From positions 2,208,001 through 2,272,000 of the forward strand of contig CM000150.2 in the NCBI GenBank assembly GCA_000004695.1: a stretch of DNA of 64,000 nt, read 5' to 3'. This DNA is from Dictyostelium discoideum (taxonomy: Eukaryota). Both the position numbers and the translations under genes were made by a program. Position 1 is the stretch's first letter, and the number at the start of each line of letters is the position of its first letter. Below are positions 8,150 through 57,603 of this stretch, piece by piece. The notes under the pieces were generated by a model. That model searched no databases, had not been told where the DNA came from, and saw nothing but the letters and a program-made list of their open reading frames with translations.

Positions 8150-8921
8150 ATGTTAACATCCAAAGATTTTAGAGATCAAGCAATCAATTTAATTAAAAAA
8201 TGGAATAATATAATTGATGAAATTCCATGGCAATGGAATCAAATTAATGAATTAAATAATGAATCAAAAGGATATTTCACAACAAAAAGATATCATAAAA
8301 TAAATAATAATAATAATAATAATAACAATAATAATATTGAAAATAAAAATAATAATAATATTGAAAATTTTGAAGAGATTAAAGAAACAATTGATGATTC
8401 ATCAACAACAATAATAAAAAGCAATAATAATAATAATGAAAATAATATAATAATTTTCCAATTTGATATAATTTACAGTAAATCATATCAAGTACCTGTA
8501 TTATATTTAAATGGATTTTCAAGTTTTGATTCATCACCATTATCTTGGAATGAAATTTGGAATAATTTACCATTATCAAATTTAGATAAAAATCAACAAT
8601 CAACAATTCCTTATATTACTCAAGTTGTAAATATTATAATAATAATAATATAATTTTTTATTTTCCATTTTCTAATAAAAAAAATATATATATTTTAATA
8701 ATTAGGAACATCCTATATTAGGTAATCCATGTTATCAATTACATCCTTGTGAAACTGATAATTTAATGAAATTAATATTATTAAAAGAAAAAGATTATAA
8801 TGATAACAATGATAAAAAAGAATATTTTAAAGATTATTATTTATTAAGTTGGTTATCAATTATTGGGCCAATGGTTAATATTAAAATACCATTTGATTTA
8901 TTAAAAAATAATAATATATAG
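8150..8921 (+). CDS. atg10: Autophagy-related protein 10 (E2-like conjugating enzyme for Atg12), ~230 aa, 2 exons
   Basis: Exon 1 8150..8626 (donor GTAAAT). Exon 2 8706..8921 (acceptor ...aattag). Collinear match to human ATG10: YSKSYQVPVLYLNGF (human YSCSYQVPVLYFRAS), TQ.EHPILGNPCYQLHPCET with the catalytic-Cys HPC motif, and SWLSIIGPMVNIKIP. A poly-Asn insert is typical for Dictyostelium. Confidence 0.8.
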
Positions 8922-13087: not shown

Positions 13088-14833
13088 ATGAAATATATTT
13101 CTTTTTTTGTTACTTTAATATTAATTTCAATTTTAAATAATTTTGTTTTATCATCAGGTACAACAGTTAGTGAAGTTACATTAATAGTAAATTTAAATAA
13201 TAATAATAATTATCCAGAGAATGGAACTTGTGGTAGTACTCAATTAACATGTAATAATATAAATGATGCATTTAATTATTTTAATACAATTGCAGTTAAT
13301 GTTAATACAAGTTCACAAATCATTTATCAACAATTAAACCTTTTATTAGATGATGGTACTTATTCCATTGGAACAACAACAATTAATTTATATCAATATA
13401 ATATAACAATTTCACCATTAAATTCAGGTTCAAATAAAGTAATAATTAATAATAATAATAATTCACCAATGTTTTCTGTAATACCATTTAATAGTACTGA
13501 TGATAGTATTTGGCAAAATTCATATATTTTAATTACTGGAATTCAATTTTTAAATTTTAAACAATCAATTATTAAAGTTTCCACCATTTATTCATTTACT
13601 GATATTAAATTTCAATCATGTATTATTAATCAATATAATTCAAAAAGTTCAATTATTGAAATTAATCTATCATTTCAAGGAAGTTTACAAATTCCAAATA
13701 GTCATTTAAAAATTAATAATTCTCAAATTTCAAATATTCAAACTGATAATAATACACCATTGATTTTTGCCATTAATACTATTATTGATTTTAATCAAAA
13801 TTCAATTACAAATGCAACTGGTATTCATAGTTTTATTTCAACATCATATGGTGAATATTTAAATGTAGATTTTTCAGATTTTACAAATGTAAATAGTTCA
13901 TATGGTATTTTTGAAGTTACAAATACACATGCTTCAATTGGTGATGGTAATTACAATAATATCCAAGCAACAAGAGGTGCATCGGTTTTAACATTTACAA
14001 AAAGTGTAACTCAAGTATACTCTGCTGCTATTGCTCGTTGTAATTTCAATGGTTATAGTGGTACTAATGGTGGTGTTTTCCAAGGTTTAAATACATTAAC
14101 AAGTTTAGAAACTATTAGTTCAAGTATTTCTCAATGTACTTTTTCAAGTGGTAGTTCAAATAGTGGTGGTGCAATTTATTCAAACAATATACCACTTTCA
14201 ATTGTAAATTGTGATTTTGGTAATAATAGTGCAAGTCTTACTGGTGGATATATTTATATAAGTGGTAATTCATTATCTTTAGTAAATGTATCAATCACCA
14301 AAGCACCACTTCCTATTACTACCACTACCAATACAATAGTTGGCGATGGAATTGGTGGTTATGCTCTTTATGCTTTAAATTCAACTGTTAATATTAATAA
14401 TGGTACTTTTGGTGGTAAACTTGATTCAATCTTTTGCAATGGTTCAACAATTAATGCTGATCAATACACTACATTACAATCAGTTTATTGTAGCAATTGT
14501 AATGTAGAAGTAAGTAATAGACAAGTTTGTAATTTTGGTGGTGATTCAACTTCAACCTCAACTTCAAATTCAGGTACTGGTACTGGTACTGGCACAGGAG
14601 GAGGTATTAGCATTAGTAGTAGCAGTGGTGGTGCTAGTCAAACTCTAACTATCACCTCAACAAGTTCAACTCCTCAAACTTCTGCTTTAACTTCCAGCTC
14701 AAGCTCAGGTTCTGTTCATACTACTGTATCAACAATAACTACGACAGGTTTTACAAGCCAATCAAACCAATTTTCACCTTCTTTTTCAATTTTTATTTTT
14801 ATTTTATTACTTTTAATTTTATCGGTTCAATAA
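13088..14833 (+). CDS. Secreted, probably GPI-anchored, protein with Pmp-type (GGAI/FxxN) parallel beta-helix repeats; 581 aa; paralog A
   Basis: Single ORF with a true ATG. It has an N-terminal signal peptide (MKYISFFVTLILISILNNFVLSSG), repeated GGAIY/GGVFQG/GGYIYISGNS beta-helix-like motifs, a Ser/Thr-rich stalk, and a C-terminal hydrophobic tail (FSIFIFILLLLILSVQ). It is the tandem paralog of 15009..16754. Confidence 0.75.
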   Translation: MKYISFFVTLILISILNNFVLSSGTTVSEVTLIVNLNNNNNYPENGTCGSTQLTCNNINDAFNYFNTIAVNVNTSSQIIYQQLNLLLDDGTYSIGTTTINLYQYNITISPLNSGSNKVIINNNNNSPMFSVIPFNSTDDSIWQNSYILITGIQFLNFKQSIIKVSTIYSFTDIKFQSCIINQYNSKSSIIEINLSFQGSLQIPNSHLKINNSQISNIQTDNNTPLIFAINTIIDFNQNSITNATGIHSFISTSYGEYLNVDFSDFTNVNSSYGIFEVTNTHASIGDGNYNNIQATRGASVLTFTKSVTQVYSAAIARCNFNGYSGTNGGVFQGLNTLTSLETISSSISQCTFSSGSSNSGGAIYSNNIPLSIVNCDFGNNSASLTGGYIYISGNSLSLVNVSITKAPLPITTTTNTIVGDGIGGYALYALNSTVNINNGTFGGKLDSIFCNGSTINADQYTTLQSVYCSNCNVEVSNRQVCNFGGDSTSTSTSNSGTGTGTGTGGGISISSSSGGASQTLTITSTSSTPQTSALTSSSSSGSVHTTVSTITTTGFTSQSNQFSPSFSIFIFILLLLILSVQ

Positions 14834-15008: not shown

Positions 15009-16754
15009 ATGAAATTTATTTCTTTTTTTATTACTTTAATTTTAATTTCAATTTTAAATAATTTTGTTTTATCATCAGGTACAACAGTTAGTGATGTTAC
15101 ATTAATAGTAAATTTAAATAATAATAATAGTTATCCAGTTAATGGGTCATGTGGTAGTAGTACTCAATTAACATGTAATAATATAAATGATGCAATTAAT
15201 TATTTTAATACTATTGCAGTAAATGTTAATAGAAGTTCATCACAAATCATTTATCAACAATTGAATCTTTTATTAGATGATGGTAATTATTCAACAACAG
15301 CAACAACAACAACAATTAATTTATATCAATTTAATATAACAATTTCACCATTAAATCCAAGTTCAAATAAAGTTATAATTAATGGTTTAAATTCAAATTC
15401 ATCAATGTTTTCTGTAACTCCATTTAATGGTATTGTAGATAGTAAGGGGCAAAATTCATATATTTTAATCACTGGAATTCAATTTTTAAATTTTAAACAA
15501 TCAATTATTCAAGTTTCAACCAATTATTCATTCACTGATATTAGATTTGAATCATGTATAATTGATCAATACAATTCAAATAATTCAATGATTGAAATTA
15601 ATAAATTAATTAGTCAAGATTTAATATTACCAAATAGTCATTTAAAAATTAATAATTCTCAAATTTCAAATATTCAAATTGTTAATAATGCATCATTAAT
15701 TTATGCAATTAATACAATTATTGGTATTTTTCAAACATCAGTTATCAACGCAACTAATGTTCAAAGTATTATTGAAATTTCATATGGTCAAAATTTAGAT
15801 GTTGAATATTCAGATTTCTCAAATGTGAATAGTGTTTATGGTATTTTCAATGTTTTAAATACTCAAGTCTCAATTGGTGATGGTAATTTCAATAATAACA
15901 TAGCAACAAATGGTGCATCAGTTTTAACATTTACATCAAATGTCACTAGTGTATACAATGCTGGTGTTGCTCGTTGCAATTTCAATGAGAATAGTGGTAC
16001 TGATGGTGGGGTTTTCCAAGGTGTAAATACAGATTCAAGTTTGGAAGATTACAGCTCAAGTATCACCAGTTGTACTTTTTCAGGTAGTAGTGCAAATAAT
16101 GGTGGTGCAATCTTTGTAGATAATATACCTCTTTCAATTGTTAATTGTCAATTTAGTGATGTCACTGCAAATGTTGCTGGTGCATTTGTTTATAATAGTA
16201 ATAATCATTTTGCAATGACAAATGTTACATATACTGAAAAATCATTAAATACTACAAAAACAAAAACAGCAACAACATCTGGAATTGAAGAATATGCTAT
16301 TTATATTTCAAGTTCAAGTGGTTCAATACAAAATGCTACATTTGATGATAATAGTTATTCAATTTTTTGTAATACTTCAACTGTTAAAATTGATGCAACC
16401 TCTAAGGTATCAACATTTACTTGTGCTCAGTGTAATATGGTTTTAGGTCAAAATCAAATTTGTAGTGTTGGTGGAAGTTCAGTTTCAAGCTCAACTTCTG
16501 CTTCTGGTTCAAGTTTGTCTGTAAGTAGTAGTGGTGCTCAATCATTAACTGTCACTTCAACAAGTTCAACTCCTCAAACTTCTGGTACAGGTTCAAGTTC
16601 AAGTACAAGTTCAAGTACAGGTTCAAGTACAAGTTCAAATTCTCATACTATTATTACTACCACAACAACTGGTGTATCTAATCAATTATCACCATCATTT
16701 TCAATTTTAATTTTCATTATTTTATTATCATTACTTTTAATTCAATCATTTTAA
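15009..16754 (+). CDS. Secreted, probably GPI-anchored, Pmp-repeat / beta-helix protein; 581 aa; paralog B
   Basis: Same architecture and an almost identical signal peptide (MKFISFFITLILISILNNFVLSSG). GGAIFVDN and GGVFQG repeats, a Ser/Thr-rich stalk, and a hydrophobic C-terminus (FSILIFIILLSLLLIQSF). Confidence 0.75.
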   Translation: MKFISFFITLILISILNNFVLSSGTTVSDVTLIVNLNNNNSYPVNGSCGSSTQLTCNNINDAINYFNTIAVNVNRSSSQIIYQQLNLLLDDGNYSTTATTTTINLYQFNITISPLNPSSNKVIINGLNSNSSMFSVTPFNGIVDSKGQNSYILITGIQFLNFKQSIIQVSTNYSFTDIRFESCIIDQYNSNNSMIEINKLISQDLILPNSHLKINNSQISNIQIVNNASLIYAINTIIGIFQTSVINATNVQSIIEISYGQNLDVEYSDFSNVNSVYGIFNVLNTQVSIGDGNFNNNIATNGASVLTFTSNVTSVYNAGVARCNFNENSGTDGGVFQGVNTDSSLEDYSSSITSCTFSGSSANNGGAIFVDNIPLSIVNCQFSDVTANVAGAFVYNSNNHFAMTNVTYTEKSLNTTKTKTATTSGIEEYAIYISSSSGSIQNATFDDNSYSIFCNTSTVKIDATSKVSTFTCAQCNMVLGQNQICSVGGSSVSSSTSASGSSLSVSSSGAQSLTVTSTSSTPQTSGTGSSSSTSSSTGSSTSSNSHTIITTTTTGVSNQLSPSFSILIFIILLSLLLIQSF

Positions 16755-17363
16755 CTTTTTTTTTTTTTCTTTTATCATTTTTAAAAAATAAAATTTCCAA
16801 TTCAATCAAATAATAAAGAAAATTTAAAAACTAAATAAAAATTAATTAGCATAATATTTAACCAATTTTTTATTTTTTTTTTTGTTTATTTTTGATAAGA
16901 CTTTTAAATATAAATTTTAAAAAAAAAATAATTGTGAAATTAAAACAAAATTCAAAAACAGTATAGATTAATAGGGTTGTTCGAATAATAAAAAATTTTT
17001 TTAAAAAAATTAAAAAAAAAAAAAAAAAAAAAAACCCCAAAAAATTAAAAATAAGATATTAGGGTTTTTCATGATGAAAAAACCCAATAACTTTTTTTTT
17101 TTCCAATCAATTTTTATAATATAAAAAAAAAAAAAAAACTAAAAAAATATCTTTTTTATAATAGCGCTATTATGCTTTTTTATTAAAATTAATTATTTTT
17201 TTTAATTTTTTATTACATTTTTGAAAATCAAGCAATGGCGATTTTTGGTTGGCCCCATTTCCATAAAATTTGATTTTTTTTTTTTTAATTTTTTATTACA
17301 TTTTTGGAAATCAGGCAATGGCGATTATTTTTTTTTGGTTAACCCCCTTTTTTATTTTAATCA

Positions 17364-17377
17364 CTTAAAATTTTAAG
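17364..17377. promoter_or_regulatory. 14-bp palindrome CTTAAAATTTTAAG, 107 bp upstream of the sacsin-like copy-1 ATG, inside a conserved upstream module
   Basis: Perfect palindrome. It is preceded by one or two copies of a ~30-bp motif 'CATTTTTGRAAATCARGCAATGGCGATT...GG..CCCC' (17210..17260 and 17290..17350). The same module recurs upstream of copies 2 and 3. Confidence 0.45.
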
Positions 17378-17483
17378 AGTTTAAAATAAAAAATCAAAAA
17401 TTTCTATTTTTTTTTTTTTTTAACAAAATCCTTAATTTTAATTTTAATTTTTTTTTTTTATTTTTTATTTTTAAAGAGATAAA

Positions 17484-17600
17484 ATGCCCCAAAATAAAAG
17501 TCAAACAATAAAACTATCTCATTTTTTAAGAGATAATCTTCTTAACTATCCAGTAAGTTCAAATAAATTTATTTATTTATTTATTTATTTATTTCTTTGT

Positions 17601-17643
<43 letters not shown>

Positions 17644-18060
17644 TTTTTTTTTTATCCACTTTTTACTTAATTTAATTTTTTTTTTATTTTTTTTTTTTTA
17701 TTTTTTTTCTTTAATTTTTTAATTTTTTTTTTTTCTTAATTTATTTTTTAATACTAACATGAAAAATATAATAGGAATCAAAAATATTTAGAGAATTGAT
17801 TCAAAATGCAGAAGATGCTCGAGCTGATACAGTCATAATAAAGGTTGATGAAGGCTCATATCCAAATAATGGGTTGTTAATTTCAAATGATAACCAAGAA
17901 ATTGAAAGTTCAAAAGAATTATTAGGTCCATCAATTTTAATTTATAATAATGCAACTTTTCAAGAACATGATTGGGAAGGAATTTGTCAAATTAGTCAAG
18001 GTAGTAAAAAAGAAAATTTAAAAAGTGTTGGCAATTTCGGTTTAGGTTTGTATTTTTTAT

Positions 18061-18113
<53 letters not shown>

Positions 18114-21100
18114 AAAATCTCATTCTAATTTTATTTATTTTTATTATATTGTATTATATTTTTATTTATTTTATTTTATTTTATTTATTTTTAAAATAGG
18201 TTGGAACAGTGTTTATCATATAACAGATAATCCAATTGTTTATAGTGGTAATAATGTTTGGTTCTCAGATCCAAACGAAAGAATGAGTGGTGGTTTATTC
18301 TTTGATTTAGATGACGAAGATGATTATAAGAAATGTTTTAGTTTTTTAGAGCCATTCATTCAATTTAAAGAATCAAATTGTAACCCAAAAGAATATTTTA
18401 ATGGTACAATCATTCGTCTACCATTGAGAATATTTCCAAGTGAAATCAAAAAAGGTGTATTGACAATGGATGCCATAAAGAAAATTTTAAATGAATTTTC
18501 AAAAGATATCAATGAAATATTGATTTTCTTAAAGAGTTTAGCATCAATTACCATCATTGTTAATAATCAGATAGTCAACTCTGTAAATATATCAAATTAT
18601 TCCAAAATTAAAGATCAAAGAGAAAAGGTATCTTTATTCTTAGCAAAAATTGTAGATAATGAAATGAAGGATCCAAGTAGTTCTGTAGAATTTGCTGAAA
18701 TTTTATGTAGTAAAAAATCACAATCAAATTGTGAATCTACATTTCAAATTGATTTAGAAATTTATAGAAATGGTGTCAGTCAATTAATTTCATACTTGGT
18801 TTCACAAGGTATCTATATTGATAGGAAATTAATTGAATTAGTTAAAAAGAATAAAGAAATCAAACTCATATCATATGGTGGCACTGCAATTCCAATCAAT
18901 TTAGATAGTTCAATAAAGTTCAAAGGTAAACCATTTACATTCTTACCAATTGGAGGATTGGTTTATGATATTCCTTTACATGTCAATGGTTACTTTAGAT
19001 TAAGTAATGCAAGAGATAATATCATTTATTCTCTAACTGAAGTTGAAGAAGCATCTGAATCATTATCAAAACAATGGAATATGTTTATATCAGAAACTAT
19101 TATTCCTTATTTCTATGTTAAATCGTTGCAATATTTAAAATTAAATTATGGTGGCGAACTATACAATTATTTCCCATACAAATGTAACAATCAAAATTAT
19201 CAAGGTCAAAGTCCATCATATGATATATCAATCACTACAATGAAATCAATTATCGGTGGTAAATACTTTTTAAATTACTTCAATTCCCAAGAATATTTAT
19301 CATTGAATGGTAGTTTAATTATTTCAAGTTTAGGTATGCCACCAGATTTCGTTTTAACCATATTAAATGAACGTAACATTAAAACAATCAAATTATCAAA
19401 TGAATTATTAAACCATTTTAATAATTTAAGAATTCCATTAACTTGTTATTCAAAACAATATTTATGTAGTCTATTAGTTTCGTCACCATTAAAACAATAC
19501 TCTGAAGATGTTATCAATTATATTAGTTGCACTGAAATCATTGAAGGTGGTCATTTAAATATGGTCCATATTTTACCAACAAATCCAAACAAAACTACAT
19601 TATATTATTTACAACGACCATCACTAAACCGCTTCTCATTTTATACTCATAGCTTTCTTTACACGAGTGATCAAGTCTATGATCTCTTATTCAAATATTA
19701 TGGTAATAAGTTGGCCAAACATTTAAAATTTTCTACATTACCATTAAACTTTAGACAATTAATTTCATCAATTTGTAGAAATTATATAAATATTAGAGAA
19801 ATTAAACTTTCAGATTTTATCACTAGTCTCAACTCCATCAACAACCTCCAATTTTTAAGTGATAGTATAATAACAATTTGGAATTGTATCGATGAATTAA
19901 AAAGAAAAGAAACTTTAGAATTATCTCATATCCAATCATTACAAATTATCCCATATAGATTAAGTCCAACTGAAACTGATGTCACTAGTTTTGATAAATC
20001 TTCATTGTTAATGTACAAATCAAATTTCTTACCAATTGAACCAATCTTAAACAAACTAAAAATCTATTTAATAAAAGAAGGACATCAAATCAATAGTTTA
20101 TTAGATGGAAATGCTCAAATCCCAATTTTATTAGGCTATCTTCAAAGGGTAAATTTATCATTAGACTCAAAGGAAATCGATAAATTAAGAATATTTTTAG
20201 TTGAATCAATGTTCCAAATTTCTTTATCACAAGATTATACTTCAATTTTTTATAATTTACCAATTCACCCATGCATTGGAAATAGTAACCAAAAGTTTAG
20301 TAGTATTACAACCAGTAGTTACTGTGTGGATTATGAAAAAATTGATCAATATGAAATTCCAGGATTAAAATTAATAAAGGTTAATGAATTAACAAAATAT
20401 AGAAATCTTTTCGATACAATACCAGCAAGAATCATTTTAAAAGGTGAAAAAGAAGTTTATAGATTTTATTTAATTCAAAATATTAGTTCCTTTGAATTAA
20501 ACCACTCAATTGAAATTATTAAAAACTTTTTAACTCTTTATAGTAATCATTATACCAATGATAGTGAATTAAGAAAATTACAATTTATTCCATCTGAAAA
20601 TGGTGTTTATTCAACTCCTGATTCATTTTATGTTTTAGATCCACTTGAAAAAGAATTAATTAGAAAAATCGAACCATTCAAGATTTTAAATTCATCTTTG
20701 GATGTTTTTATTGGTTATTTAAGAATATTTGGATTGGTTAATAGACCTTCAGATAGTCATATATGTTCCAAGATTTCAAGTTTACTTTCCAATCAAGATT
20801 CAATAGAAACTTATCAAACTTTTATTAATTATTTAAATCAAAGAGGTGAGAATATTACTGTTTCAATAATTAATTCTTTCAAAGATATTCCATTTATTCC
20901 ACCCAGTGAATTTGATACCTATGACGGATTTGCTCCATATAAATATAAAATTTCATTATCAGAGTGCGCATTATCAAGTTATAAAGATTGTTTATTCACT
21001 GTAAAAACTCCAATTAAAGTAATTTTCAATTACAACAACCCCATTTACAAATACCTATCATCAAATTTAAATGATAACATTATTCAGCATTTGATTAATT

Positions 21101-26074: not shown

Positions 26075-26797
26075 TAGAATATAAATAAATAATATTTTAA
26101 CTTTCTAAATCTAAAATTATAACTATTAATCATTTTTAGAGTTTGAAATTATTTTTATCTTTTTATATACTTTTTTTGATTATTATTAGAGTGCTCAATT
26201 ATTTGTCTCTTCTGTCATCTGTTTTTTTCATTTTTCACTTTTTTCTTTTTTATTTAAATATAGAAAATTGTTTTTTTGTTTATCTCAATTTTTTTTTTTT
26301 TTTTTTAAAGTCAAGTGGTAATCAAGAAAAAAAATTAATTCAAGTTTAAATTGTGTCAACACTTAATAAAAATAGATTTATAGGTATTTAATTTTTAAAA
26401 ATCTTTATTTCCTGATAAACATGTACCTGTTAAACCTTAATAATTGTTGATTAAAAATCAGGTTAAATTAAAATTAAAATTATTGTTGAATGAATTTTAA
26501 ATTTTATATCTTTTTTGTGTATTGAAAAAATTTAAATCATTGTTTAAAAAAAAAAAAAAAAAAAAAAAATTAAGGCAAAATCAAAAAATTTAAATTTAAT
26601 GGTGGTATTGTTCTGATAATAAAAAGTTAAAAAAAATAAAAAAAAATAAAAAAAATAAAAACCAAAAGTCACTGTAAATGAGCAAAAAAAAAAAACCCCA
26701 ACATCTTTTTTTTTGACCTATTTTTGTTTTCCCCCACAAATAAAAATTTGTAATTTTTTTATTTTTTATCAGAGCATTTTTGGAAATCAGGTAACTG

Positions 26798-26828
<31 letters not shown>

Positions 26829-26853
26829 GGTAGCCCTTTTTTTATTTTAAACG

Positions 26854-26867
26854 CTTAGAATTTTAAG
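26854..26867. promoter_or_regulatory. Imperfect copy of the 14-bp palindrome (CTTAGAATTTTAAG), 272 bp upstream of the sacsin-like copy-2 ATG
   Basis: It sits within the conserved module at 26760..26870, next to 'CATTTTTGGAAATCAGGTAACTGTGATT' and 'GGTAGCCC'. Confidence 0.4.
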
Positions 26868-27138
26868 TGATTAATAATAAATAATGAAAAAAAAAAAAAA
26901 AAAAAAATTTGTATTAATTTTTTTTTTTTAACAAAAATATATATTTTTTTATATTTTTTTCTTATTTTTTTATTTTTTTATTTTTTTTATAATTTACATT
27001 AGTATTTCTAATATTTTCCATTAAATAGAAATTTTTTTTTTTTTTTTTTATTTTTTTATTTTTTTATTTTTTTTATAATTTACATTAGTATTTCTATTAT
27101 TTTCCATTAATTTGAAATTTTATTTAAATAAAGATAAA

Positions 27139-30100
27139 ATGCCCCAAAATAAAATTCAAACAATAAAACCAGCTCATTTTTTAAGAGATAATCTTCTTAA
27201 CTATCCAGTAAGGTCAAAAATTATTTATTTATTAATTTTTTTTCATCCTTTTTTTTTTTTTTTTTTTTCATTTTTCCAATTTTTTTTTTTTTTTTTTCTT
27301 TTTATTTTTTAGTACAGACATAAATAATATAATTATATTAACAAAAAAATATAATAGGAATCAAAAATATTTAGAGAATTGATTCAAAATGCAGAAGATG
27401 CTCGAGCTGATACAGTCATAATAAAGGTTGATGAAGGCTCATATCCAAATAATGGGTTATTAATTTCAAATGATAACCAAGAAATTCAAAGTTCAAAAGA
27501 ATTATTAGGTCCATCAATTTTAATTTATAATAATGCAACTTTTCAAAAACATGATTGGGAAGGAATTTGTCAAATTAGTCAAGGTAGTAAAAAAGAAAAT
27601 CTAAAAAGTGTTGGCAATTTCGGTTTAGGTTTGTATTTTTTATTTTTTTAAAAAAAAAAATAATAAAAAAAAAAAATAAAAAAATATCTTATTCTAATTT
27701 TATTTTTATTATCTTATATTACATTATTTTATGTTATTGTATTTTTATTTATTTTTAAAATAGGTTGGAATAGTGTTTATCATATAACAGATAATCCAAT
27801 TGTTTATAGTGGTAATAATGTTTGGTTTGCAGATCCAAATGAGAGAATGAGTGGTGGTTTATTCTTTGATTTGGATGATGAAGATGATTATAACAAATGT
27901 CTTAGTTTTTTAGAGCCATTCATTCAATTTAAAGAATCAAATTGTAACCCAAAAGAATATTTTAATGGTACAATCATTCGTCTACCATTGAGAATATATC
28001 CAAGTGAAATCAAAAAAGCTGTATTAACAATGGATGCCATAAAGAAAATTTTAAATGAATTTTCAAAAGATATCAATGAAATATTGATTTTCTTAAAGAG
28101 TTTAGCATCAATTACCATCATTGTTAATAACCAGATAATCAACTCGGTTTCTATATCAAATTATTCCAAAATTAAAGAGAAAAGAGAAAAGGTATCTTTA
28201 TTCTTAGCAAACATTGTAGATAATGAAATGAACAATCCAAGTAGTGCTGTAGAATTAGCTGAAATTTTATGTAGTAATAAATCACAATCAAATTGTGAAT
28301 CTACATTTCAAATTGATTTAGAAATTTATAGAAATGGTGCCAGTCAATTAATTTCATACTTGGTTTCACAAGGTATCTATATTGATAGGAAATTAATTGA
28401 ATTAGTTAAAAAGAATAAAGAAATCAAACTCATATCATATGGTGGTGTAGCAGTTCCGATCAGTTTAGATGGTCCAATAAATTTCAAAGGTAAACCATTT
28501 ACATTTTTACCAATTGGAGCATTAGTTTATGATATTCCTTTACATGTCAATGGTTACTTTAGATTAAGTAATGCAAGAGATAATATCATTTATTCTCTAA
28601 CTGAAGTTGAAGAAGCATCTGAATCATTATCAAAACAATGGAATATGTTTATATCAGAAACTATTATTCCTTATTTCTATGTTAAATCGTTGGAATATTT
28701 AAAATTAAATTATGGTGGCGAACTATACAATTATTTCCCATACAAATGTAACAATCAAAATTATCAAGGTCAAAGCCCATCATATGATATATCAATCACT
28801 ACAATGAAATCAATTATTGGTGGTAAATACTTTTTGAATTATTTCAATCCCTCAGAGTATTTACCATTGAATGGTAGTTTAATTATTTCAAGTTCAGATA
28901 TGCCACCAGATTTCATTTTAACCATATTAAAAGAACGTAACATTAAAACAATCAAATTATCAAATGAATTATTAAACCATTTTAATAATTTAAGAATTCC
29001 ATTAACTTGTTATTCAAAACAATATTTATGTAGTCTATTAGTTTCATCACCATTAAAACAATACTCTGAAGATGTTATCAATTACATTTGTTGCACTGAA
29101 ATCGTTCAAGGTGGTCATTTAAATAAAGTCAAAATTTTACCAACAAATCCAAACAAAAATACATTAGATTGTTTAAAATTATCTCAAACACTCTCAGATA
29201 TATGTAATAATACAAATCAATTCCTTTGCATGAGTGATCAAGTCTATGATCTCTTATTCGGTTACCATGGCCAAAGCTTGACCTATCATTTAAAACTATC
29301 TACAATGCCACCAAACTTTAGAAAATTTATTTCACTAATTTGTGAAAAATATTCAAATATTAAAGAAATTAAACTTTCAAATTTTCTCACTAGTCTCAAA
29401 TCTTTAAGCAGCCAGTTTTTAAATGAAAATATAATAACAGTTTGGAATTGTATCAAAGAATTAGAAAAAAATGAAACTTTACAATTATCAAAAATTAGAT
29501 CCATACCAATTGTTCCATTTAGATCGAGTACAACTCAGACTGGCGTAACTAGTTATGATAAATCTTCATTGTTAATGTACAGATCAAAATTTTTACCAAT
29601 TGAACCAATCTTAAACAAATTAAATATATATTTAGTAGAAGAAGAGCATCAATTCAATAGTTTATTAAGTGGAAATGATCAAATTTCAAAAATGTTAGAT
29701 TATCTTCAAAAGGTATATTTATCATTAGATTCAGATGAAATTGATAAATTAAGAATTTTTTTAGTCGAATTGATTCACCAAGCTTCTTTATCAAAAGCTG
29801 ATATTTCAATTTTTTATAATTTACCAATTCACCCATGCATTGGAAGCAGTGATCAAAAGTTTAGTAGTATTACATATAAAAGCATATGTGTGGACTATGA
29901 AAAAATTGATCAATATGAAATTAAAGGATTGAAATTAATAAAGGTTAATGAATTATCAAAATATAAAAGCATTGTCGATTCTATTCCAACAAAACAAATT
30001 TTTAAAGGTGAAAAACAGATTTATAGGTTTTATTTAATTCCAAACATTGGTTCCTTTGAATTAAATGTTTCAATTGAAATTATTACAAAATTTTTAACTC

Positions 30101-35566: not shown

Positions 35567-35980
35567 TAGAAAATAAATAAATAATATATTAACTTTCTTT
35601 ACGTCAACCAAATTCAATTTATATTTTATACAAATGTATTTTTTATATTTTATATAAAAAAAAAAAAATTATGACCATTAATTATTTTAGAGTTTGTAAT
35701 TCTTTTTATTATCCTATTTTTATAATGAATTTGTTTCTGAATGAAACAATCGGTGATGGATTTAACCATACATTTGATTCAAATAAATTAGAAAATACAA
35801 TAATTAAATAAAAATAAATATATAAAAAAATTGTGTGCTTTTTTATTTTTTTTTTTTTTTTTTTTTTACATTATTGGAAATGAGGCAATAAAACCCCATT
35901 TGAATTAATTTTTTTTTTTTTTTTATTTTTGAGAATCTGGCAATTGAGATTTAACCCCCTTTTTTATTTATAATTTATCT

Positions 35981-35994
35981 CTTAAAATTTTAAG
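35981..35994. promoter_or_regulatory. 14-bp palindrome CTTAAAATTTTAAG, 147 bp upstream of the sacsin-like copy-3 ATG
   Basis: Perfect palindrome inside the conserved module at 35870..36000. The module has two copies of the GGAAAT(C/G)AGGCAAT motif and a CCCC block. Confidence 0.45.
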
Positions 35995-36140
35995 TGGTAA
36001 ATAATAAAAAAAAAAATTTTTTTTTTATTTTTTTTTTTTTTAATACTAATCATCACCACTTTTTTTTTTCTTTTTTTTTTTATTATTTACCTTAGTATTT
36101 TTATTTATTACATATTTAAATATTATTTTTAAAAGAGATA

Positions 36141-39100
36141 ATGCCCAAAACTAAAGATCAAAGACTCAAAGTATCTCATTCTTTAAGAAATAATCTTCTA
36201 AACTATCCAGTAAGTTCAAATAAATTTAAATTTTTTTTTTAAATTAAATTCTTTTTTTTTTATTTTTTTTACAAACACAAAAATTGTTTTTTTTTTTTTT
36301 TTTTTATGCTGACATGAAAAATATAATGATATTAATAAATTATAAAAAAAATATATGATAGGAATCAAAAATAGTTAGAGAGTTGATTCAAAATGCAGAA
36401 GATGCTCTAGCTGATACATTCATAATAAAGGTTGATGAAGGCTCATATCCAAATAATGGGTTATTAATTTCAAATGATAACCAAGAAATTGAAAGTTCAA
36501 AAGAATTATTAGGTCCATCAATTTTAATTTATAATAATGCAACTTTTCATGAACAGGATTGGGAAGGCATTTGTGAAATTAATCAAGGTAGTAAAAAAGA
36601 AAATTTAAAAAGTGTTGGCAATTTCGGTTTAGGTTTGTACTTTTTATTTTTTAAAAAAAAAAAATATATACATCTTATTCTAATTTTATTAATTCTTAAA
36701 ATAGGTTGGAACAGTGTTTATCATATAACAGATAATCCAATTGTTTATAGTGGTAATAATGTTTGGTTTGCAGATCCAAATGAAAGAATTGGTGGTGGTT
36801 TATTCTTTGATTTGGACGATGAAGATGATTATAACAAATGTTTTAGTTTTTTAGAGCCATTCATTCAATTCAAAGAATCAAATTGTAACCCAAAAGAATA
36901 TTTTAATGGTACAATCATTCGTCTACCATTGAGAATATATCCAAGTGAAATCAAAAAAGCTGTATTAACAATGGATGCCATAAAGAAAATTTTAAATGAA
37001 TTTTCAAAAGATATCAATGAAATATTGATTTTCTTAAAGAGTTTAGCATCAATTACCATCATTGTTAATAATCAGATAGTCAACTCTGTAAAAATAAAAA
37101 ATTATTCCAAAATTAAAGATCAAAGAGAAAAGGTATCTTTATTCTTATCAAAAATTGTAGATAATGAAATGAACAATCCAAGTAGTGCTGTAGAATTAGC
37201 TGAAATTTTATGCAGTAATAAATCACAATCAAATTGTGAATCTACATTTCAAATTGATTTAGAAATTTATAGAAATGGTGTCAGTCAATTAATTTCATAC
37301 TTGGTTTCGCAAGGTATCTATATTGATAGGAAATTAATTGAATTAGTTAAAAAGAATAAAGAAATCAAACTCATATCATATGGTGGTGTAGCAGTTCCAA
37401 TCAGTTTAGATAGTTCAATAAATTTCAAAGGTAAACCATTTACATTTTTACCAATTGGAGCATTAGTTTATGATATTCCTTTACATGTCAATGGTTACTT
37501 TAGATTAAGTAATGCAAGAGATAATATCATTTATTCGTTAACTGAAGTTGAAGAAGCATCTGAATCATTATCAAAACAATGGAATAAGTTTATATCAGAA
37601 ACTATTATTCCTTATTTCTATGTTAAATCGTTGGAATATTTAAAATCAAATTATCTTGTCAAACTATACAATTATTTCCCATACAAATGTAACAATGAAA
37701 ATTATCAAGGTCAAAGCCCAGCATATGATATATCAATCACTACAATGAAATCAATTATCGGTGGTAAATACTTTTTAAATTACTTCAATTCCCATGAATA
37801 TTTACCATTGATAGGTAGTTTAATCATTTCAAGTTCAGATATACCACCAGATTTCGTTTTAACCATCATTCGTGAACGTAACATTAAAACAATCTTTTTA
37901 TCAAATGAATTATTAAACCATTTTAATAATTTAAGAATTTCTTTACTTTGTTATTCTAAACAATATTTATGTAGTCTATTAGTTTCATCACCATTAAAAC
38001 AATACTCTGAAGATGTTATCAATTACATTTGTTGCACTGAAATCATTGAAGGTGGTCATTTAAATATGGTCAATATTTTACCAACAAATTCAAATAATAT
38101 TACATTAGATTGTTTAAAATCAACTCAAACACTCCCATATTTCCCATGCCAAAATTACCATAGTAATTTCGGCAGCCATATTAATTTTGGCATGGGACAC
38201 TCATATATAAATATAAATCAATTCCTTTACATGAGTGATCAAGTCTATGATCTCTTATTCAGGTACCATGGCCAAAGCTTGACCTTCCATTTAAAAATAT
38301 CAACAATGCCACCAAACTTTAGAAAATTTATTTCAGCAATTTGTAGAAAATATTGGAATATTGGAGAAATTAAACTTTCAAATTTTCTCACTAGTCTCAA
38401 ATCTTTAAGCAACAAATTTTTAAAAGAACATATAATAACAGTTTGGGGTTGTATCGATGAATTAGGCATAAATGAAACTTTAGAATTATCAAAAATTAGA
38501 TCCATACCTATTGTTCCATATAGATCGAGTCCAACTCAGACTGATGTCACTAGTTATGATAAATCTTCATTGTTAATGTACAGATCAAAACTCTTGCCAA
38601 TTGAACCAATATTAAACAAATTAAATATATATATAATAGAGGAAGAACATCAATTCAATAATTTATTACATGCAACGGCTTATATTTCAAAATTGTTAAA
38701 TTATCTTAAAAATGTAGATTTATCATTAGATTCAGATGAAATTGATAAATTAAGAATTTTTTTAGTCGAATCGATTCACCAAGCCTCTATTGCCGATATT
38801 TCAATTTTTTATAATTTACCAATTCACCCATGCATTGGAAACAGTGATCAAAAGTTTAGTAGTATAACTAATAATAGCATATGTGTGGATTATGAAAAAA
38901 TTGATCAATATGAAATTAAAGGATTGAAATTAATAAAGGTTAATGAATTATCAAAATATAAAAGAATTGTCGACTATATACCAACAAAACAAATTTTAAT
39001 AGGAGAAAAACAGGTTTATAGGTATTATTTAATTCAAAATATTAGTTCCTTTGAATTAAATGTTTCAATTGAAATTATTACAGAATTTTTAACTCTTTAT

Positions 39101-57503: not shown

Positions 57504-57531
57504 TTGGCCATTCTTTCGAATTCTTAAAAAG

Positions 57532-57603
57532 CTCCCTGTCCGGGAATTGAACCCGGGCCTTTCGCGTGACAGGCGAAAATCCTCACCACTAGACCAACAA
57601 GGA
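57532..57603 (-). tRNA. tRNA-Asp (anticodon GUC), 72 nt
   Basis: Minus-strand sequence TCCTTGTTGGTCTAGTGGTGAGGATTTTCGCCTGTCACGCGAAAGGCCCGGGTTCAATTCCCGGACAGGGAG folds as a cloverleaf. The 7-bp acceptor stem has one G-U pair. Anticodon stem TTCGC/GCGAA with loop CTGTCAC. T stem CCGGG/CCCGG with loop TTCAATT. Discriminator G. Confidence 0.9.

Follow-up and report, generated by a model that had tools for sequence, protein, structure and literature searches.

Promoters of Dictyostelium and related systems

Promoters for RNA polymerase II in Dictyostelium consist of short G/C-containing upstream elements in A/T-rich DNA, a TATA box, an oligo(dT) stretch and the start site. Kimmel and Firtel are said to have given the classical descriptions of this layout. 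The region considered here lies upstream of three sacsin-like genes of D. discoideum AX4, in a window of 64,000 nucleotides (the whole stretch of DNA that was analysed, to which all AX4 coordinates refer). It shows a comparable arrangement: a block of recognisable sequence, here called the module, is placed 100-360 bp 5' of the ATG and forms G/C-containing islands in ~85% A/T DNA, and a TATA-like A/T box and a T-run follow directly downstream of it. The likeness is one of sequence. Unlike in the described promoters, the core of the module has no excess conservation, and there is no match to the known site types that were compared: HSE (nGAAnnTTCnnGAAn), STAT (TTCnnnGAA), CArG (CC(A/T)6GG), MEF2, GATA and Myb patterns occur in the module at shuffle expectation, and none of them is positionally conserved there.

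Other systems come close in single features. The module resembles promoters that are duplicated together with tandem paralogues in that it is inherited with each ~9.1 kb unit, that it is less alike the older the duplicates are, and that the copy number of the array varies between strains. It differs from them in that the gene body is better kept (92-95% identity) than exon 1, intron 1 and the DNA 5' of the gene (74-86%). A further comparison is with the dyad sites of dimeric factors, since the module contains a perfect 14-bp dyad (C-TTAAAA/TTTTAA-G) that has changed less in the D. discoideum complex than the sequence flanking it. Unlike such sites, two copies have it in broken form and three related species lack it, and palindromes of this kind occur here by composition alone. 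Finally, in Class I RNA genes a distance of ~60 nt separates the DUSE element from the start, or from a TGTG box, downstream of it (PMC7919456). Copy 2 of the array and its orthologue likewise have a CCC-containing box 60 nt upstream of a TGTG motif.

Taken together, the block is probably promoter-proximal DNA of the sacsin-like gene that was copied with each ~9.1 kb duplication in the D. discoideum lineage; we would give this reading of the sequence a probability of about 0.6.

Anatomy of the module

The array consists of three head-to-tail sacsin-like units of ~9.1 kb, which are 86-94% identical. Each encodes a protein of ~2,650 amino acids with a Sacsin/Nov domain (PF25794), and the ATGs are found at 17484 (copy 1), 27139 (copy 2) and 36141 (copy 3). 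Two paralogues of 581 amino acids lie upstream of the array, and GNT-I, whose product matches the AX4 protein with 100% identity, lies downstream on the opposite strand.

Nine copies of the module were compared: the three of AX4, three from D. discoideum ACTFIR (L001, copies A to C), and one each from two 'D. cf. discoideum' assemblies (L002 and L003) and from D. discoideum ACTFIW (L009). Automated multiple alignments misplaced copies with large indels, and the blocks were registered by hand instead. Registered in this way, the nine copies are collinear islands of complex sequence amid variable homopolymer and microsatellite DNA. In all of them, from five genomes, the module is on the gene strand and upstream of a sacsin-like ATG. 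The first part consists of one or two tandem units, each made up of TTTTTGGAAATC(A/T)GGCAAT ... GATT, a T-run and GGT(T)AACCCC(C). Then come the palindrome, the TATA-like A/T box, another T-run, a block of the AACAAAATCATTTCCAC type, TTTAC(A/C)TTAGTATTTCTATTA and the ATG. The features of the three AX4 copies are collected in Table 1.

Table 1. Features of the sacsin-like array and of the upstream module in D. discoideum AX4 (window coordinates)
Feature	Position	Strand	Description
Sacsin-like array	17484-44535		
Copy 1 distal unit 'a'	17193..17275	+	core TTTTTGAAAATCAAGCAAT 17218-17236; GGCGATT 17237-17243; GGTTGGCCCC 17247-17256
Copy 1 proximal unit 'b'	17276..17357	+	core TTTTTGGAAATCAGGCAAT 17301-17319; GGCGATT 17320-17326; T-run; C-box GGTTAACCCCC 17337-17347; then TTTTTTATTT
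Copy 1 palindrome CTTAAAATTTTAAG	17364..17377	none	perfect, 14 bp
Copy 1 putative core promoter	17380..17431	+	TATA-like TTTAAAATAAAAAA 17380-17393; T-run 17407-17421; initiator-like AACAAAATCC 17422-17431
Copy 1 exon 1	17484..17552	+	ATG 17484; 23 codons, then GTAAGT donor
Copy 2 C-rich block TTTTCCCCCACAAATAAAA	26727..26745	+	contains DUSE-like CCCACAA 26733-26739
Copy 2 single unit	26777..26836	+	core TTTTTGGAAATCAGGTAAC 26777-26795; TGTGATT 26796-26802; long T-run; degenerate C-box GGTAGCCC 26829-26836
Copy 2 palindrome variant CTTAGAATTTTAAG	26854..26867	none	1 mismatch; dyad imperfect
Copy 2 86-bp tandem duplication, presumed 5' leader	26939..27110	+	92% identical; both repeats carry the conserved block TTTACATTAGTATTTCTA(A/T)TATTTTCCATTAA
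Copy 3 distal unit 'a'	35871..35904	+	degenerate core TTATTGGAAATGAGGCAAT 35871-35889; then AAAACCCCATTTGAA 35890-35904
Copy 3 proximal unit 'b'	35926..35969	+	core TTTTTGAGAATCTGGCAAT 35926-35944; TGAGATT; C-box TAACCCCC 35952-35959; then TTTTTTATTT
Copy 3 palindrome CTTAAAATTTTAAG	35981..35994	none	perfect, 14 bp
Copy 3 putative core promoter and leader	35996..36106	+	TATA-like GGTAAATAATAAAAA from 35996; T-run; AATACTAATCATCACCAC 36042-36059; leader block TTTACCTTAGTATTTTTATTT 36086-36106; ATG 36141

The elements had been described in the original prediction, which was made by reading the AX4 window, and their positions agree with those given there to within a few bases. The 21-nt core GGAAATCAGGCAATGGCGATT, for which 0 matches are expected from shuffles, is exact at 17306-17326, and has two mismatches at 17223-17243, four at 26782-26802 and five at 35931-35951; the matches in copies 2 and 3 are quite degenerate. 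The predicted unit numbers (two, one and two in copies 1 to 3) were recovered, with the distal unit of copy 3 present as a degenerate half-copy (35871-35889). The 14-bp palindrome was also recovered as predicted, exact in copies 1 and 3 and with one mismatch in copy 2. A box of the form GG...CCCC(C), said to follow the core in every copy, is found in copy 1 after both units. Copies 2 and 3 preserve it only in part: what is left in copy 2 is GGTAGCCC, and copy 3 has AAAACCCC and TAACCCCC without the GG. The distance to the ATG had been put at 100-270 bp and had to be corrected to 107-364 bp across the three AX4 copies. It is longer in copy 2 because of the 86-bp duplication in the leader.

The two units of copy 1 are an 83-bp tandem duplication, in which 17193-17246 and 17276-17329 are 93% identical at a spacing of 83, and this duplication is recent. 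The C-rich block of copy 2 is shared with L001 copy A, and degenerate forms of it are present in L002 and L003. Blocks homologous to the initiator-like region of copy 1 (AACAAAATCATTTCCAC or AACCAAATCATTTCCAC) are found in L003, L001 copy C and L009.

Some further sequence features of these regions are worth recording. About 35 bp 5' of the copy 1 module, TAATAGCGCTATTA (17159-17172) is a second 14-bp palindrome without mismatches; its centre contains G/C, and it is missing upstream of copies 2 and 3. In copy 3, GGTAAATAATAAAAAAAAAAA and TTTTTTTTTTTATTATTTACC (35996-36016 and 36071-36091, 54 nt apart) form a perfect inverted repeat of 21 nt in the stretch from the palindrome to the leader block. 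It may be due to chance, because the sequence is A/T-rich. Long (ATT)n and (AAT)n microsatellites are expanded in the sacsin upstream regions of some strains (L003 at 8340-8480 and 8750-8860, L001 at 16395-16537, and L009 upstream of its last copy), and the distance from module to ATG is thereby shifted by more than 100 bp.

A putative promoter

TATA-like A/T boxes, T-runs and blocks of the AACAAAATCATTTCCAC type are present 3' of the palindrome in most copies, as sequence matches only. Because this layout fits a TATA box followed by oligo-dT and then initiation, RNA polymerase II would be predicted to start directly behind the T-run, with the palindrome ~45-60 bp further upstream. With the start placed there, the palindrome and the G/C-containing units would act as proximal upstream elements. 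Among the parts of the module the palindrome is the best candidate, and a reasonable one, for the site of a dimeric factor, and a regulatory role of the module appears plausible.

An alternative is that transcription starts further upstream, so that the motifs lie in the 5' untranslated region and act, if at all, as RNA. The 107-364 bp to the ATG would be compatible with a long leader of this kind, and short ATG-initiated reading frames do occur inside the copy 1 units. However, copies 2 and 3 have not kept these reading frames, and neither strand gave a stable RNA fold (z between -0.02 and +1.95). A leader would also have to accommodate T-runs of up to ~30 nt and a variable number of units inside the block, and the TATA-like box, the T-run and the conserved initiator-like block are all placed downstream of the module. 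We regard this alternative as quite improbable, and promoter-proximal DNA upstream of the start as the better description.

The original prediction went one step further and proposed a promoter or factor site shared by the three genes. Its positional side has held up: the module is where a promoter is expected, core-promoter-like features follow it, and it has the character neither of an RNA gene nor, in 193 kb of sequence, of a dispersed repeat. Its argument from conservation has not, as the units are recent tandem duplicates that are 86-94% identical. Conservation from unit to unit is for this reason no evidence of function, and any co-regulation of the three genes would come from inheritance of the same promoter and not from a shared element that is maintained independently.

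Descent and constraint within the D. discoideum complex

The copies of the module are homologous by descent. Its three occurrences in AX4 are not independent, because they are homologous parts of tandem ~9.1 kb duplicates, and since the sacsin-like genes share their descent, a shared upstream block is what one would expect. A rival reading is that the motifs are a neutral relic. They would then have no sequence-specific function and be the non-homopolymer remains of recently duplicated intergenic DNA, still recognisable since slippage scrambles A/T runs and leaves complex sequence alone. This explanation is possible, if clearly less probable than the promoter, and it draws on the recent origin of the units.

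The rate of change of the core also speaks for it. Mean pairwise identity is 86% in exon 1, 73-76% in intron 1, 84% in intron 2 and 92-95% in exons 2-3, and in the 19-nt core it is 78%, with 12 of 19 columns variable. The core thus carries no excess constraint and diverges like the introns (78% compared to 73-84%), as a neutral relic should. The palindrome is a different case. Its mean identity among seven copies is 95.9%, with 2 of 14 columns variable, while its immediate flanks are 52-72% identical, with 18 of 21 columns variable (Fisher p = 5e-5 against the palindrome). None of the 67 14-column windows in the introns reaches the same identity; the best of them are the splice donors, at 0.925. 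These values argue against a relic, but the excess is modest and post-hoc: the probability of two or fewer variable columns in the palindrome is between 0.005 and 0.16 depending on the neutral rate that is assumed, for a window that was chosen after the fact. Moreover, the palindrome is mutated in two copies, AX4 copy 2 and its orthologue L001 copy A, by different substitutions, and it has been lost in L001 copy B.

Palindromes are also common in this DNA, which is again what a relic would predict. With up to two mismatches the palindrome was found 6 times in the window against 6.2 expected, and it is thus not rarer than chance. The window has 56 perfect 14-bp palindromes, a density of 2.3 for each kb of AT-rich DNA, and those that contain G/C number 8 against 9.6 expected. 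What the relic does not account for is the position directly 5' of a TATA-like box and a T-run, where proximal elements of a promoter are expected.

Comparison with other species

The syntenic loci of three further genomes were reached by way of members of the GNT-I protein cluster, and that of D. firmibasis was obtained separately. A block scan of the sacsin upstream regions found no module blocks in D. citrinum and D. firmibasis, and the palindrome was not found in the upstream regions of D. citrinum, D. dimigraforme or D. firmibasis. With profiles built from D. discoideum-complex copies only, nothing rose above background upstream of the orthologues in the same three species. In D. dimigraforme, a pairwise alignment shows a 42-nt remnant of the core and C-box (TTTTTGAGAGATCT...GGTGATTTAACCCC) at -222 to -180, with an alignment score for the unit of 44 compared to 26.3 +/- 2.9 in shuffles, none of 400 being as high. 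The position of the palindrome is a gap in this alignment. No part of the module except unit 'b' of copy 3 matches significantly beyond the D. discoideum complex, and this match is the one in D. dimigraforme.

One candidate in D. firmibasis had to be rejected. The pattern TTTG[AG]AAAT-N6-14-G[CT]GATT matched five of five sacsin upstream regions in the 193 kb and seemed to mark a copy of the module in this species. It had been written after viewing the D. firmibasis sequence, however, and was overfitted; under a blind nhmmer profile the site ranked ~30 with E = 64, and in a later profile search it ranked 52.

The intergenic DNA between the adjacent and divergent GNT-I and p450 genes serves as a comparison. 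This region has 15.5% GC and no stop-free stretch longer than 90 amino acids, and it can be aligned end-to-end with D. citrinum, D. dimigraforme and D. firmibasis (z = 87, 77 and 25, respectively) at 83-91% identity. Because the neighbouring region aligns in the same three species, the sacsin upstream region is unusually fast-evolving or has been replaced. A module that is missing from D. citrinum and D. firmibasis in spite of conserved intergenic DNA next door again fits a neutral relic, whereas the survival of the core and C-box unit in an otherwise poorly alignable region of D. dimigraforme does not. It should also be noted that D. citrinum has an intact sacsin-like gene of 2,655 amino acids without any module block, and the module is therefore dispensable for keeping the gene intact.

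On balance, promoter-proximal DNA copied with the gene remains the preferred reading. The region turns over fast and is specific to the D. discoideum complex, with only the core and C-box unit traceable further, to D. dimigraforme. Its rapid evolution and its absence from close relatives make the module, taken as promoter-proximal DNA, an ordinary lineage-specific feature, an uncharacterised example of duplicated promoter DNA.

RNA genes and mobile elements

Could the block contain a gene of its own? An RNA gene was considered and rejected: there is no Rfam family, neither at the gathering threshold nor at E <= 10, and the single-sequence folds are no stabler than those of shuffled sequences on both strands. 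There is no tRNA in the module either. The only match of ARAGORN and Rfam in the window is a tRNA-Asp (GTC) at 57531-57603 on the minus strand.

A more specific form of this idea is a small non-coding RNA gene driven by DUSE and nested upstream of the sacsin-like genes. In copy 2, AACTGTG (26793-26799) is found exactly 60 nt downstream of the DUSE-like CCCACAA; this spacing agrees with the described promoters (PMC7919456), and L001 copy A has the same arrangement. Here the likeness ends, as the consensus is restricted to one paralogue lineage, that of copy 2 and L001 copy A, and is degenerate or absent in the other copies. The motif CCCAYAA is not enriched in the window but under-represented (3 found against 12.7 expected), and what we take to be the 11-nt motif of Class I genes does not occur near the DUSE-like site of copy 2. 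Unlike at DUSE promoters, there is no Class I-like RNA or stem next to it: the lack of a stable fold and of any Rfam match even at E <= 10 counts against such a gene, and so does a sequence that evolves with indels at a neutral-like rate. Such a gene is therefore very hard to credit.

Equally little speaks for a fragment of a dispersed repeat or transposon that by chance was located 5' of the ancestral gene before the duplications and was copied with it. Tandem sub-duplications within the block, such as the 83 bp of copy 1, are compatible with this origin. But in the 193 kb from seven loci the core pattern is found only 5' of sacsin-like ATGs, apart from one chance match in coding sequence, and it keeps the same relative position in the syntenic loci of five genomes. 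Neither terminal inverted repeats nor target-site duplications were seen beyond low-complexity A/T matches. A mobile origin is highly improbable.

The literature offered nothing relevant on the palindrome string or on the regulation of sacsin genes in Dictyostelium.

Possible significance for the array

It is a more ambitious proposal that a lineage-specific factor binds the core and C-box unit as well as the 14-bp dyad, and that these make up a young module which drives coordinated expression of the array. We consider this rather unlikely. If it were true, a young module would have arisen or been remodelled in the D. discoideum complex in the service of a fast-evolving array with variable copy number, a pattern that recalls gene families of the conflict or immunity type. 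Should the palindrome or the core and C-box unit be factor sites, they would offer a small and well-delimited handle on the regulation of the array in a model amoeba, and would also illustrate how rapidly promoters turn over from one sibling species to another. The locus also carries a caution, namely that tandem duplicates of recent origin will be similar upstream through descent, and that this similarity is by itself no proof of a conserved regulatory element.

Copy number, divergence and neighbouring genes

The copy number of the array differs among strains and species, from 1 to at least 4, in a comparison that covers L001, L002, L003, L004, L007, L008, L009 and the AX4 window. There are at least two sacsin-like copies in ACTFIY, at least two in ACTFIW, three in AX4 and at least four in D. 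discoideum ACTFIR. In D. cf. discoideum ACTFIZ, D. citrinum and D. firmibasis the annotation has just one copy between the genes on either side, which in the latter two are a gene of the 581-aa type and GNT-I. D. dimigraforme shows one copy, with no gene call in the 1.3 kb of upstream sequence covered. No sacsin gene adjoins GNT-I in D. purpureum or in P. violaceum, and protein searches for distant orthologues found only proteins of the D. discoideum complex and relatives that are ~28% identical.

The genes themselves evolve fast. Identity of the sacsin-like gene to AX4 is ~80% in D. citrinum, ~76% in D. dimigraforme and ~70% in D. firmibasis; the values for GNT-I are 90%, 89% and 83%, and the divergence of the sacsin-like gene outpaces that of its neighbours (AX4 against L004, L007 and L008). 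Among the paralogues, compared over 17484-18200, 27139-27850, 36141-36705 and their homologues, exon 1 (86% identical), intron 1 (73%) and upstream DNA are clearly more diverged than the gene body (exons 2-3, 92-95%). This difference suggests that the body has been homogenised by gene conversion up to near intron 1 and that the promoter has not.

There are two types of exon 1, one beginning MPQNKSQTIK... in copies 1 and 2 and one beginning MPKTKDQRLK... in copy 3. Intron 2 of copy 3 (36633-36704, 72 nt) is in frame and has no stop codons. A naive reading-frame call consequently runs on into the intron, and the conserved ATPase motif GNFGLG/WNSVYH is split at the point marked by the slash.

The tandem 581-aa paralogues directly 5' of the array (13088-14833 and 15009-16754) are 76% identical at the nucleotide level. 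They contain no Pfam domain, and an exact look-up of the 581-aa protein of the window returned no record. D. citrinum, D. firmibasis and D. cf. discoideum have the orthologue at the same position. Finally, the spacer between copies 1 and 2 contains a 54-bp inversion, where AX4 26431-26484 is 94% identical in reverse to 516-569 of ACTFIR (L001) with collinear flanks; one end of it, 26464-26484, matches in either orientation.
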